A DNA stretch of 20,594 bases from a virus (lineage: Duplodnaviria; Heunggongvirae; Uroviricota; Caudoviricetes), in IMG/VR virus record IMGVR_UViG_2526164690_000051; one strand, given 5' to 3'. The notes beneath the pieces are model-generated. The model ran no database searches. It saw nothing but the letters and a program-made list of their open reading frames with translations, and was not told the DNA's origin. Each line of letters begins with the position of its first letter. Position 1 is the first letter of the stretch. Shown here piece after piece: positions 5,868 to 19,860 of the stretch. The translations under genes and the position numbers were made by a program.

Positions 5868-7695
5868 ATGAGCACTTCCGCATACAAGAGCAAAATTCGA
5901 ACACTCCAGTGCGCGTTAAAAAACGGTGAATTTGAACCATTCATACAACATATCCGTTTTCCATACTTTAAAAATATAGAGCAGAATGCAAGGATCGATT
6001 TTCAGTTCCCTATAACGGCTTTAGTAGGAAAAAATGGAACTAATAAAAGTTCTGTTATCAAAGCGCTATTTGGTTGCCCACATGGTAAAAATATAACTCG
6101 TTATTGGTTCACAACTGAAACAGATGAGTTTCCTGACCTAAAACTTGCTGATGGCAGTTCTCTTAAGCCTAGATATATATATGGATATAAAAATGCTGAT
6201 GGCCGTTTAGTTGAAATACTCCAAGCGCGTATCAATGCTACCAAGAAAACAATCGATTATTGGGAAACAAGTCGACCATCTGTTGGTGATAACATGGAGA
6301 GTATTTCGGATGATCTGGGTGCTAATAGTAATGCAACCAGATGGAAAAAATCAAGAAGGGATTGATTTTCCTAGATTTCAGATCGGAAATAAGTGCATTT
6401 GATAGATGTATGTATCACTCTGATTTTAAATTAAGAAAGAAGAAGAGTGGTGTATTAATTACAAAGCAAGACTATATCAGAAGCAAATCTAAATATATAA
6501 AGAAAGCTTTTGATGAAAAGCTAAGTAATTTAAGACTTTGGGGGACGGAAACCATTGTTAAAAATATAACCTTGGCGCCAGAACTAGTTGAGCACGTCTC
6601 ATTTATATTAGGAAAAAAATATAAAGTCATTAAATTTCTTGAGCATCGGTTATTTGGAACCAGAGGAGGAACCGCTTTACTTTCAACTGATAAGTTGAAC
6701 TATACAGAAGCTTTTGCTGGAAGTGGTGAATTTGCAATAGTTTCACTAATACTCAATATTTATTCGGCCAAACCTAATTCATTAATTCTTCTTGACGAAC
6801 CAGAAGTTTCACTTCACCCTGGTGCACAGAAAAGGATGATGGATGTTCTGTACTCTATTGTTGAGCAGAAAAAACATCAAGTGGTAATATCAACCCATTC
6901 TCCTGTTATTGTGAACACTCTTCCCAAAGATGCTATTAAATTATTTGTTTTTGATGAAGAGAGTGAAACAGCTAAAATAGTTCAAAATATAGCACCGGAT
7001 GAAGCTTTTATAGAGCTAGGGCATGATATTAACAAGAAAACAATAATTGTAGAAGATAAATTAGCTAAAGCAATTATAGATAAAGCGATTAAAAATTATG
7101 AAAGATTAAGTTTATCATTTAGTGTAAGTTATATACCAGGTGGTTCGGAGACAATTTTAAGCAAGCATCTTCCCAGTTACGCTGTGGTAGAACGCAATGA
7201 TATTTTGTTTTTACTTGATGGTGATAAAAACAAAAAATAAAACCAGTAAGAATTAGTGAAATTGCTGATGCTGATTTAGTTAATACAATGTGCAAATATT
7301 ATGGTTGCGAGTTAATTATCAATGCCAGTGGTAGTAATGGCAAAAAAAATGAACAAGAATCTAATAGACTCAAAAGGCAAGTGCTTGAGTATGCATTCAA
7401 TAAAGTGCAGTATTTACCATTTGATACTCCCGAACAATTACTCATTGAAAAGGCAATTACGCCAAGTGAAAAAGAAATAATTGATTCACAGACCTGGAGT
7501 TCTAATGATCCAGAGCTGTATAAGAATCAAATAAGATTATTAGCGCAACACCTGTATGATAAAGAAGAAGTAAATGCAGAGGAAATTTTTTGCCTCCAAA
7601 AAATGATGACCGCAAGACTTAAAAATGAATTGCCTGAATTTATAAAAATAAGAAAAATAATTACTCAGGCTCTTGACCGTGGTATCATTAGGTAG
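5868..7695 (+). pseudogene. OLD/Gabija/PARIS-like ABC-type ATPase fused to TOPRIM-like nuclease domain; split into three ORFs by two frameshifts in A6 runs
   Basis: ORF 5868..6365 has Walker A (ALVGKNGTNKSS). ORF 6341..7240 has signature-like AGSGEFAIVSL, Walker B LILLDEPEVSLHP, H-loop ISTHSP, then TOPRIM-like TIIVEDK and LFLLDGD. ORF 7288..7695 is in frame with the open frame from 7228. One extra A in the runs at 6345..6350 and 7232..7237 fuses all three into about 609 aa. Confidence 0.6.
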
Positions 7696-7718
7696 TGATT
7701 CTGGATGCAGAGGGAAAA

Positions 7719-8757
7719 ATGAAAAAAATCAAAGTGTTTGACTTCTTTTCCGGTTGTGGTGGAACCAGCCAAGGTTTCCATCAAGCTGGAATGGATATTG
7801 TTTTTGGCCTCGATTTCGACGTTGATGCAGCCAGTTCATTTCGTGCAAATTTCCCGCAAGCTGCTTTTATTAACTCGGACATTAGGTTAATCGACAACAA
7901 TGCCATAAACAAGTTAGTAAAAAACATCGTAATGATTACATTCTTTTTTCAGGATGTGCGCCTTGTCAACCGTACTCTAAGCAAAACTCAAATAAAAAAA
8001 TGATGATCCACGATTAGATCTATTAAAGGAATTCAGTCGTTTTGTAGAGCATTATATGCCTGATTTTATTTTTGTTGAAAACGTGCCAGGAATGCAAAAG
8101 TTTAACAAAAATGAAGGAACATTCATGATGTTTTTAGAAATGCTTTCATCAAAGGGATATAGTGTAGATTATAAAGTAATGCCAGCTGCGTGGTACGGTG
8201 TACCACAGACGCGAGAAAGATTAGTGCTCATTGCATCCAAGGATTTTTATGTCGCATTGCCTTCTCCTACACATGGGGTTGGAAATACTCCCTATTCAAC
8301 AGTAAAGGACTGGATCGCTAATTTACCGAAGATAGAAGCAGGAGAAAAGCATAATAGTATTCCTGATCATGAAGCTGCACGCTTATCAGAGCTTAATTTA
8401 CGTAGAATAAAATGCACTCCTGAAGGTGGAAGTCGAGAATTTTGGCCAGATGAATTGATTTTAGAATGCCATCGTAACCATAAAGGGCATACAGACGTAT
8501 ATGGACGTTTGAGTTGGGACAAACCAGCCAGCGGACTAACAACTCGTTGTATTAGCTATTCAAATGGACGTTTTGGACATCCAACACAAAATCGAGCAAT
8601 ATCTGTTCGTGAAGCAGCGTGTCTACAAACATTTCCTTTGGATTATAAATTTATTGGTTCTTTGCAATCTCGGGCTCGTCAAATAGGAAATGCGGTCCCT
8701 CCGAAGATGTCTGAAACGATTGGAAAACATTTGCTTAATATAATCAAAGCCTCCTAG
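7719..8757 (+). pseudogene. DNA (cytosine-5)-methyltransferase; split by two homopolymer frameshifts (T6 at 7944..7949, A7 at 7994..8000)
   Basis: Motif I FDFFSGCGG in ORF 7695..8003 (start likely Met at 7719 after AGGGA). Motif IV GCAPCQPYS lies in a second frame (7949..8017). Motifs ENVPGM, QTRER and GNAVPP are in ORF 8056..8757. A +1 insertion in each run gives a contiguous enzyme of about 346 aa. Confidence 0.7.
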
Positions 8758-8772
8758 GAGGCTTTATTTTAT
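8743..8772. terminator. bidirectional rho-independent terminator between convergent genes
   Basis: Perfect inverted repeat AAAGCCTCC-TAG-GAGGCTTT flanked by T-rich sequence on both strands; the methyltransferase stop codon is in the loop. Confidence 0.6.
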
Positions 8773-8790
8773 TGTTATCCCCCCTAGTAG

Positions 8791-18043: not shown

Positions 18044-18250
18044 ATGACAAAAATTATGAGATATGACGATGTTAAACCATGTCCGTTTTGTGGTTGTCCA
18101 TCTGTTACAGTGAAAGCAATTTCAGGATATTACCGGGCAAAATGCAACGGATGCGAATCCCGAACTGGCTATGGTGGAAGTGAAAAAGAAGCACTCGAAA
18201 GATGGAATAAACGAACTACTGGAAATAATAATGGAGGTGTTCATGTATAA
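18044..18250 (+). CDS. ralR: restriction alleviation protein Lar/RalR
   Basis: MTKIMRYDDVKPCPFCGCPSVTVKAISGYYRAKCNGCESRTGYGGSEKEALERWNKR...; Cys4 zinc-ribbon; matches Rac Lar. Confidence 0.75.
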   Translation: MTKIMRYDDVKPCPFCGCPSVTVKAISGYYRAKCNGCESRTGYGGSEKEALERWNKRTTGNNNGGVHV

Positions 18251-18431
18251 AATAACTGCCACTATTGAAAAAGAAGGTGGCACTCCTACTAACTGGACAA
18301 GATATTCAAAATCTAAATTAACGAAATCAGAATGCGAAAAAATGCTCTCAGGGAAAAAAGAAGCAGGCGTGTCCAGAGAGCAGAAAGTAAAGCTGATAAA
18401 TTTTAATTGCGAGAAACTTCTGTCCTCGTGA
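18243..18431 (+). CDS. YdaC-like small protein
   Basis: MYKITATIEKEGGTPTNW...; GGAGG five nt upstream; overlaps the lar stop. Confidence 0.5.
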   Translation: MYKITATIEKEGGTPTNWTRYSKSKLTKSECEKMLSGKKEAGVSREQKVKLINFNCEKLLSS

Positions 18432-18537
18432 GTTGCATTATATACAAATTAGAACTTCATAGCTGATTATTAAAAATCAACCACACCCGCCAGTATTCTG
18501 TATATTTACTGGCGGTCATATCGTAAGAGGTATGGCA

Positions 18538-18819
18538 ATGAATCTTGTGACACTCAAAACGTGGGGAAAACTCAGATATCCGGATAACCCACCATCAATA
18601 TCAACGCTGAGACGATGGGCAAGGAATGGAAACATTTATCCTGCACCTGAACTACACGGGAGGAGTTACAGGGTGGTTCCGGAAGCTTTCTATATCAACC
18701 CAAATAAGGTTGATACCGATATAACACACCATCAGCCTAATGGGCGACAAGGGAGAGACAGTCCGTTACTGGAGAAGTTAAAACATGCAGCGGAAAAAAT
18801 ACGATCCCAATTTACCTAA
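18538..18819 (+). CDS. excisionase-like protein (Xis)
   Basis: ORF 18532..18819; second Met has better RBS spacing. ISTLRRWARNGNIYPAPELHGRSY resembles lambda Xis. Overlaps the int start as xis-int pairs typically do. Confidence 0.6.
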   Translation: MNLVTLKTWGKLRYPDNPPSISTLRRWARNGNIYPAPELHGRSYRVVPEAFYINPNKVDTDITHHQPNGRQGRDSPLLEKLKHAAEKIRSQFT

Positions 18820-19860
18820 AAACTTAACATATCGAAGGAGGGACAAAGCATATTACTGGCGCAACCCTCTGACGAAAGAAGAATTTACACTAGGTAAAAT
18901 TTCAAGAAGAGATGCAGTAGCGCAGGCAATTGAAGCAAATCATTATATATACAAAAACTACTCTCCTGCTGCCTTAATTGAAAAACTAAAAGGGTTCGAC
19001 TCATTTACTATGGCAGACTGGATTGAACGTTACAAAACGATTCTTATAAGGAGAAAAGTGTCCAGAAATACTTATAAAATTCGGGTAAATCAACTGGAGA
19101 CAATAAAAGAAAAATTAGGAGGGGTTTTACTGACAGAAATAACCACTCGCCATATTGCCGAGTTTCTTGATTTGTGGATTGAAGGAGGGAAAAACACGAT
19201 GGCAGGATCAATGCGTTCTGTGTTATCTGATATGTTCCGCGAGGCCATTGTTGAAGGACGTATATCTCAAAATCCAGTAACGCCAACAAGAGCACCGAAA
19301 ATAGTAGTTACAAGAGAACGGCTGAAACTAAAGACATACAACTGCATCAGGGAGGCAGCAGATCAACTTCCGACATGGTTCCCATTAGCTATGGACTTAG
19401 CCCTTGTAACAGGACAACGTCGCGAAGACATAACAAATATGCGGTTCAGTGAGATTTATGATGATCGTCTCCACATCAGGCAAATTAAGACAGGAATGAT
19501 GATTGCTATCCCCCTGTCACTCAGCCTTCCTGTCGCTGGTTTACGACTTGGTACAGTAGTTGAACAGTGCCGCATGGTAAGTAGGGGGGATTATCTAATC
19601 AGTGCCGGGATTAGAAAAACAGCCCTGACGGCAGCATTCACCCGGACGGCCTGACAAAGAAATTTGTCGCAGCCAGAAAATTAACAGGTATCCAGTTCAG
19701 TGAAAACCCACCAACTTTTCACGAGATCAGAAGCCTGGCTGGACGATTGTACAAAGAAACATGTGGGGAAGAATTTGCTCAACGTCTACTTGGCCACACA
19801 TCGGAGAAGACAACAAAAATGTATCTTGATGAGAGAGAAAAAACGTACTTACTGCTCTGA
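18785..19860 (+). pseudogene. tyrosine integrase (lambda Int family), interrupted by a frameshift in an A5 run at 19615..19619
   Basis: N-terminal frame (18785..19654) ends ...ISAGIRKTALTAAFTRTA*. The C-terminal segment (open from 19615 to stop 19858..19860) reads ...TKKFVAARKLTGIQFSENPPTFHEIRSLAGRLYKE...LLGHTSEKTTKMYLDE..., aligning with the lambda Int catalytic C-terminus. One extra A restores about 358 aa. Confidence 0.8.

Follow-up and report, generated by a model that had tools for sequence, protein, structure and literature searches.

One-base losses in A/T runs of a Rac-like prophage of the Escherichia coli DEC8C draft genome: probable consensus errors in a nuclease/methyltransferase cassette and the integrase gene

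Are the cargo genes and the integrase gene of a prophage inactive when a draft genome presents them as broken at runs of A or T, or is the assembly one base short at each of these runs? The question is raised by a stretch of 20,594 nucleotides (nt), IMG/VR virus record IMGVR_UViG_2526164690_000051, referred to below as the window. We found the window to make up the opening 20,594 nt of contig AIGH01000045.1 (assembly GCA_000249835.2), part of a 2012 draft of Escherichia coli DEC8C. It represents a Rac-like lambdoid prophage of E. coli with recE, recT, kilR, ralR, hokD, an excisionase gene, and an integrase gene, and it adjoins the chromosomal gene yebY. A two-gene cassette with a GC content of 36% is placed between hokD and the replication genes, with a gene for an OLD-like ATPase first and a gene for a C5 cytosine methyltransferase second. 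A first-pass annotation made from the letters of the window had described five frameshifts in these genes and in the integrase gene, and had preferred homopolymer under-calling to independent inactivating mutations as their cause. We arrive at seven losses. With a probability of about 0.88, all or nearly all of these are consensus errors of the DEC8C draft, i.e., homopolymer under-calls, and neither gene inactivation nor another biological feature, which makes the finding an ordinary one.

The window was traced by its truncated, 289-residue integrase, which an exact look-up placed at 18785..19654 of AIGH01000045.1. These coordinates are the same as in the window, and the DNA of contig and window was 100% identical at this locus. 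The protein accessions name E. coli DEC8C, and the DEC8C record carries the gene fragments as separate proteins (EHW17221.1, EHW17223.1, and EHW17237.1).

Seven one-base losses relative to finished genomes

The genes concerned are the following (coordinates are those of the window):

391..549, minus strand: DUF3927 gene, with losses at 403..409
5868..7695, plus strand: OLD-like ABC-ATPase gene, "ATP-dependent nuclease" in RefSeq, 609 amino acids (aa) when intact
7719..8757, plus strand: C5 cytosine DNA methyltransferase gene, 346 aa when intact
18785..19860, plus strand: lambda-type tyrosine integrase gene, 358 aa when intact

In the window the ATPase gene appears as three open reading frames (ORFs; 5868..6365, 6341..7240, and 7288..7695), while the methyltransferase gene is split into 7695/7719..8003 and 8056..8757. 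The integrase ORF ends at residue 289, and most of the catalytic domain, including H-x-x-R and Y, lies out of frame downstream.

Positions 243..20594 of the window were compared base by base with the intact prophage of E. coli O103 RM8385 (20,352 aligned nt). There were no substitutions and seven gaps, and every gap was a single base missing from the window in an A/T run. The seven sites, together with one run that does not differ, are:

403..404, minus-strand DUF3927 gene: T2 in the window, T3 in the reference
406..409, minus-strand DUF3927 gene: T4 in the window, T5 in the reference
6345..6350, plus strand, first break of the ATPase gene: A6 in the window, A7 in the reference
7232..7237, plus strand, second break of the ATPase gene, in a DGDKNKK stretch: A6 in the window, A7 in the reference
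7919..7924, plus strand, true first break of the methyltransferase gene: A6 in the window, A7 in the reference
7944..7949, plus strand, T6 run: same length in the intact reference, no difference
7994..8000, plus strand, second break of the methyltransferase gene: A7 in the window, A8 in the reference
19615..19619, plus strand, break of the integrase gene: A5 in the window, A6 in the reference

The five runs named in the first-pass annotation (A6, A6, T6, A7, and A5) can all be read from the window, and the alignment with RM8385 confirmed the breaks at 6345, 7232, 7994, and 19615. The first break of the methyltransferase gene had been placed in the T6 run at 7944..7949. This run is identical in the reference, and the base was instead found to be missing from the A6 run at 7919..7924, 25 nt upstream. 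A T added at 7944 does join the two ORFs, as had been proposed, but leaves eight wrong residues (KNIVMITFFF in place of KKHRNDYILF), whereas an A added at 7919 yields the reference protein. With one base added at each of the true sites, the products become 100% identical to the intact RefSeq proteins, i.e., the ATPase of 609 aa (WP_000107695.1), the methyltransferase of 346 aa (WP_000721512.1), and the integrase of 358 aa (WP_001189091.1).

The count of five was too low, since two further losses at 403..409 had been overlooked. Here the window reads TTCTTTT compared to TTTCTTTTT in intact copies of the DUF3927 gene. The two losses (T3 to T2 and T5 to T4), which are 2 nt apart, alter the last residues encoded at the 3' end and give a product of 52 aa instead of 55 aa. 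Some 400 nt separate the site from the contig start, and the prophage segment around it is present in about 5 copies per genome. The same 52-aa variant is also listed for a second NCBI assembly (EIJ12851.1).

Homologous prophages of other genomes were compared, as the first-pass annotation had suggested. The same prophage was found in four complete RefSeq genomes, those of O103 RM8385, 2013C-4225, and the O111:H11 strains 88.0502 and 88-19539, which gave equal scores against the window. In all four of these independently finished genomes all seven runs are one base longer, and there are no substitution differences. The cassette region measures 3,005 nt in all 30 complete genomes listed (out of 32 carriers), compared to 3,001 nt in the query; the 30 fall into two alleles, with 99.9% and 99.3% identity. 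The run lengths of the window at the cassette were found in none of these 30 listed genomes. The A5 version of the integrase gene was likewise absent from all 227 complete genomes with this integrase, and the 403..409 version from all 3,110 copies of the DUF3927 segment across 690 complete genomes. The closest integrase alleles (140 genomes, 98.9% identity, corresponding to one difference in 91 nt) have A6 at 19615. The intact methyltransferase of exactly this allele is present on at least 1,000 contigs, and the 102-aa fragment that results from the loss at 7919 on one contig only, that of the NCBI assembly of DEC8C.

The uniform direction and the A/T homopolymer context that had been pointed out earlier were borne out, as all seven changes are deletions (sign test, 0.016) and all are located in A/T runs. 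Shortened runs made up 4/17 of the A/T runs with a reference length of at least 7, 1/44 of those of length 6, 1/95 of those of length 5, and 1/478 of those of length 3, while none of the G/C runs in the aligned window was shortened. Natural rates of insertions and deletions (indels) climb steeply with run length as well (PMC8510543). The dependence on run length is therefore indecisive by itself because real slippage depends on run length too, and it is the absence of substitutions that decides. Mutation-accumulation lines of mismatch-repair-deficient E. coli, the natural state most prone to indels, acquired 30,061 substitutions and 5,324 small indels, a ratio of 5.6 to 1 (PMC8510543). At this ratio, seven indels together with no substitution have a probability of about 2e-6. 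We also considered a mutator (mismatch-repair-deficient) history of DEC8C and rejected it, as substitutions should then exceed indels several-fold and the window has none.

Losses in public read-set assemblies and a precedent

Assemblies of public read sets that contain the same cassette were retrieved by look-up of the exact truncated products. Because such a look-up forces sharing, the sharing of any one site among the read sets carries no weight, and common descent of shared losses was rejected as evidence. Four read sets were found to have the DEC8C cassette allele without a single nucleotide polymorphism (SNP), and each of them has a different set of losses. SRR497695, with 0 SNPs relative to the window, has losses at 6345, 7232, and 7994 and an intact A7 run at 7919. 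In SRR497669, bases are missing at 6345 and from an A7 run at 6613, and the contig ends inside the 7232 run. The loss at 6345 is absent from both SRR578809, which has the 7232 loss plus losses in two T5 runs, and SRR495240, which has the 7232 loss only. The frameshifted read sets of this allele span a narrow range of early accessions, from SRR495240 to SRR578809. Single sites recur elsewhere: the 6345 loss in ERR4088459, the 7232 loss in SRR024131, and the 7994 loss in SRR15988978. Beyond the four read sets of the DEC8C allele, seven unrelated ones carry the second cassette allele and have other combinations at the same runs, always as deletions. Eight contig ends of these assemblies, those of SRR497695 included, fall inside homopolymer runs, which we ascribe to reads that disagree on run length. 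The reads of DEC8C itself presumably disagree at these runs too.

Altogether, the finished genomes, the run-length trend, and the differing subsets of losses among read sets support the earlier preference for homopolymer under-calling. Reads would under-call long A/T homopolymers, the consensus would inherit runs that are one base short, and gene callers would then split the genes at the shortened runs. The DNA of DEC8C most likely holds intact genes for the OLD-like ATPase/nuclease, the C5 methyltransferase, the integrase, and the DUF3927 protein.

We take the DEC genomes, including DEC8C, to have come from the Institute for Genome Sciences, and the link to a platform is circumstantial only. 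In a contemporaneous study of Shiga toxin-producing E. coli, DNA sequenced at this institute was processed with 454 Titanium and the Celera assembler (PMC3491183). We infer that the DEC8C draft was obtained on a platform of the pyrosequencing type. A precedent is found in Clostridium autoethanogenum, where 243 discrepancies were reported, each a run that had been called short and most of them in homopolymers; Sanger sequencing of a sampled subset confirmed errors, and 18 had been annotated as frameshifts (PMC4687164). The two cases agree in that the differences are single-base, all too short, and concentrated in longer homopolymers, that genes were split into annotated fragments, and that accurate sequence restores full-length proteins. 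They differ in that C. autoethanogenum was resequenced from the same strain, and in that the errors of DEC8C are unusually concentrated in one AT-rich cassette of 2.9 kb.

The main value of the finding is one of caution. Taken at face value, the assembly has a dead cassette and a dead integrase gene, while finished genomes with the identical prophage have them intact. Where surveys of defence systems, of pseudogenes, or of prophage activity include such drafts, genes with long A/T runs will be miscounted, those of AT-rich cargo most of all.

Alternatives to assembly error

Several observations weigh against consensus errors as the sole explanation. The argument is comparative and was built on finished genomes of other strains and on other read sets in place of the raw reads of DEC8C. 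The losses are also clustered. Over 29.6 kb of the DEC8C contig (positions 1..29654), four of the seven A/T runs of at least 7 are shortened in the cassette (5868..8757), as opposed to none of the 14 elsewhere (Fisher, 0.006), and in the adjoining 9.1 kb of chromosome DEC8C and RM8385 differ by a single substitution, with no indel. The density of long runs was considered as the full cause of the clustering and was rejected; it explains a part only, and the excess in the cassette is still significant in the same test. Low coverage of the AT-rich stretch is a plausible guess, and relaxed selection on a dead cassette would give such clustering as well. In SRR495240 the 7232 loss is the sole difference in an otherwise perfect contig of 3.2 kb. 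Finally, the A5 integrase allele is also present in five ERR747xxxx read sets, including ERR7472913 (integrase at 463..1332 of its locus) and ERR7474454, on contigs of 33.7 kb in which each of the 8 A/T runs of length 7 is correct. A genuine A5 integrase allele thus probably exists in the ERR747xxxx lineage, which is another lineage of E. coli. A third A5 carrier, SRR057628, has further homopolymer losses and looks noisy.

One alternative is a mixed case, in which most losses are artefacts and one or two, the A5 run of the integrase gene and/or the A6 run at 7232, are genuine in the DEC8C lineage, so that the integrase or the ATPase would really be inactive. The occurrence of A5 in read sets with no error at any other long run fits with this, as does the 7232 loss, which is the one most often shared among read sets with the DEC8C allele. 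We nevertheless consider the mixed case unlikely. The sharing of sites is built into the retrieval by truncated products, the frameshifted read sets of the DEC8C allele are all early accessions, and neither allele occurs in a finished genome among the 30 listed of 32 for the cassette and the 227 for the integrase. In addition, the chromosomal flank of DEC8C is closer to that of RM8385, an A6 carrier, than to that of the ERR lineage; this grouping is based on one informative SNP, and a real A5 in DEC8C would then require an independent origin. The integrase site is thus, in our judgement, very probably an artefact, and for the cassette sites we hold this with somewhat greater confidence. A bolder reading is that at least some of the losses are real and that the DEC8 lineage silenced its nuclease/methyltransferase cassette and grounded the prophage by repeated slippage in A runs. 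The A6 run of the integrase gene would then be a natural hot spot at which prophages are repeatedly domesticated. The hot spot is suggested because A5 also occurs in unrelated, apparently clean read sets, and we regard this reading as quite improbable.

It is very improbable that all seven losses are genuine replication-slippage mutations and that the cassette, integrase, and DUF3927 genes are true pseudogenes in a decaying prophage. Natural indels share the dependence on run length (PMC8510543), and the clustering in the cassette (4/7 compared to 0/14) would be in line with neutral decay once a first hit had inactivated it. This does not account for the lack of any substitution in 20.35 kb beside seven indels that all go in one direction, nor for SRR497695, which has the identical sequence without the 7919 loss and has contigs that break inside A runs. 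None of the alleles is present in the finished genomes listed, and there would be no point in hitting each of two neighbouring genes twice. Were the losses true, the prophage would be immobilised and its restriction-like module silenced, which would be of modest interest. We give hardly any credence to the runs being functional switches, either through phase variation by slipped-strand mispairing or through rescue of the frameshifts by transcriptional or ribosomal slippage. The idea draws on general knowledge: transcription can slip on A runs within genes, and some bacteria have phase-variable restriction-modification systems. Phase-variable contingency loci resemble the cassette in having homopolymeric tracts in methyltransferase and nuclease genes, where a one-base change switches the frame. 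In contrast to such loci, the A/T tracts of the cassette are short (A6 to A8), occur two per gene rather than one, and do not vary in length across the listed finished genomes. The invariant length of the cassette in the 30 listed complete genomes, across both alleles, largely refutes a switch. In Salmonella, Citrobacter, Klebsiella, and E. coli, the homologues of 609 and 346 aa are each encoded by one ORF with no conserved frameshift, and length variation was only seen in short contigs of low quality, always as loss and never in both directions. Under-calling in the draft remains the explanation that we prefer.

Gene products and other features of the locus

The repaired ATPase has an N-terminal ABC-type domain that matches Pfam AAA_15 (75 bits) and AAA_21 (75 bits), both above the cut-off, and contains the motif GKNGTNKS. 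The gene had been termed "ATPase-TOPRIM", and the ATPase part of this name holds. No TOPRIM domain was detected by sequence: the C-terminal 229 residues (381-609) gave no Pfam match even at E values up to 10, and the DGD motif at the 7232 site is the sole hint of such a domain. No NCBIfam model reached its cut-off in a scan of the protein, which gave sub-threshold ATPase matches only. The best PADLOC matches were HEC-04 and ATPase-Toprim_I-B, where the latter model aligns with residues 41-464 only. A distant relationship was found to the ATPases of the solved OLD (PDB 6p74, E value 4e-6), of PtuA, and of AriA. Like the OLD-family nucleases P2 Old, GajA, and the retron-Eco8 effector, the protein has an ABC-type ATPase at its N terminus, with Walker A and B motifs, and together with the type II C5 methyltransferase it is cargo of a lambdoid prophage. 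It differs from these in that only the DGD motif, and no TOPRIM domain, was seen in its sequence, and in its pairing with a methyltransferase, to which no named system was matched.

The repaired methyltransferase matches PF00145 over residues 4-339 (207 bits) and has the catalytic PCQ motif (SGCAPCQP). An intact pair might act like a prophage-carried restriction-modification module, in which the methyltransferase would mark host DNA and the ATP-dependent nuclease would attack unmarked DNA. The repaired integrase matches PF09003, PF22022, and PF00589, i.e., the arm-binding, core-binding, and catalytic domains.

The cassette pair is rare in E. coli and was present in 32/5,426 complete genomes. 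Intact homologues of both genes were found in Salmonella, and of the methyltransferase gene also in Citrobacter and Klebsiella aerogenes. E. coli E482, which is another early draft, likewise has the cassette in fragments (EGB38482.1 of 94 aa and EGB38483.1 of 104 aa).

In SRR057628, the recT gene (1037..1735) has A5 instead of A6 and encodes 232 aa instead of 269 aa, and a T7 run at the start of yebF (about 10658..11050) is reduced to T6; this is the same type of error, in conserved genes. A literature search by run and assembly accessions gave no matches. In 9.9 kb of chromosome, the sole substitution between DEC8C and RM8385 is located in purT at about 28673 of AIGH01000045.1, outside the window. 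DEC8C has A at this position, where RM8385 and three other read sets have T; the A represents either a SNP specific to the strain or a further assembly error.

When positions 1..242 of the window are compared with 3900..6942 of the RM8385 locus, the insertion sequence ISCro1 (IS66 family; tnpA, tnpB, and a transposase gene) is found in RM8385 in place of 180 nt of the window (63..242). The window is without this insertion, and the start of the DEC8C contig falls inside this repeated prophage region. Three tRNA genes are borne by the prophage on the minus strand at 1147..1398 of the window, namely Arg-TCT, Arg-TCG, and one with the anticodon CAT, which is a tRNA-Met according to ARAGORN and a tRNA-Ile according to the RefSeq annotation.

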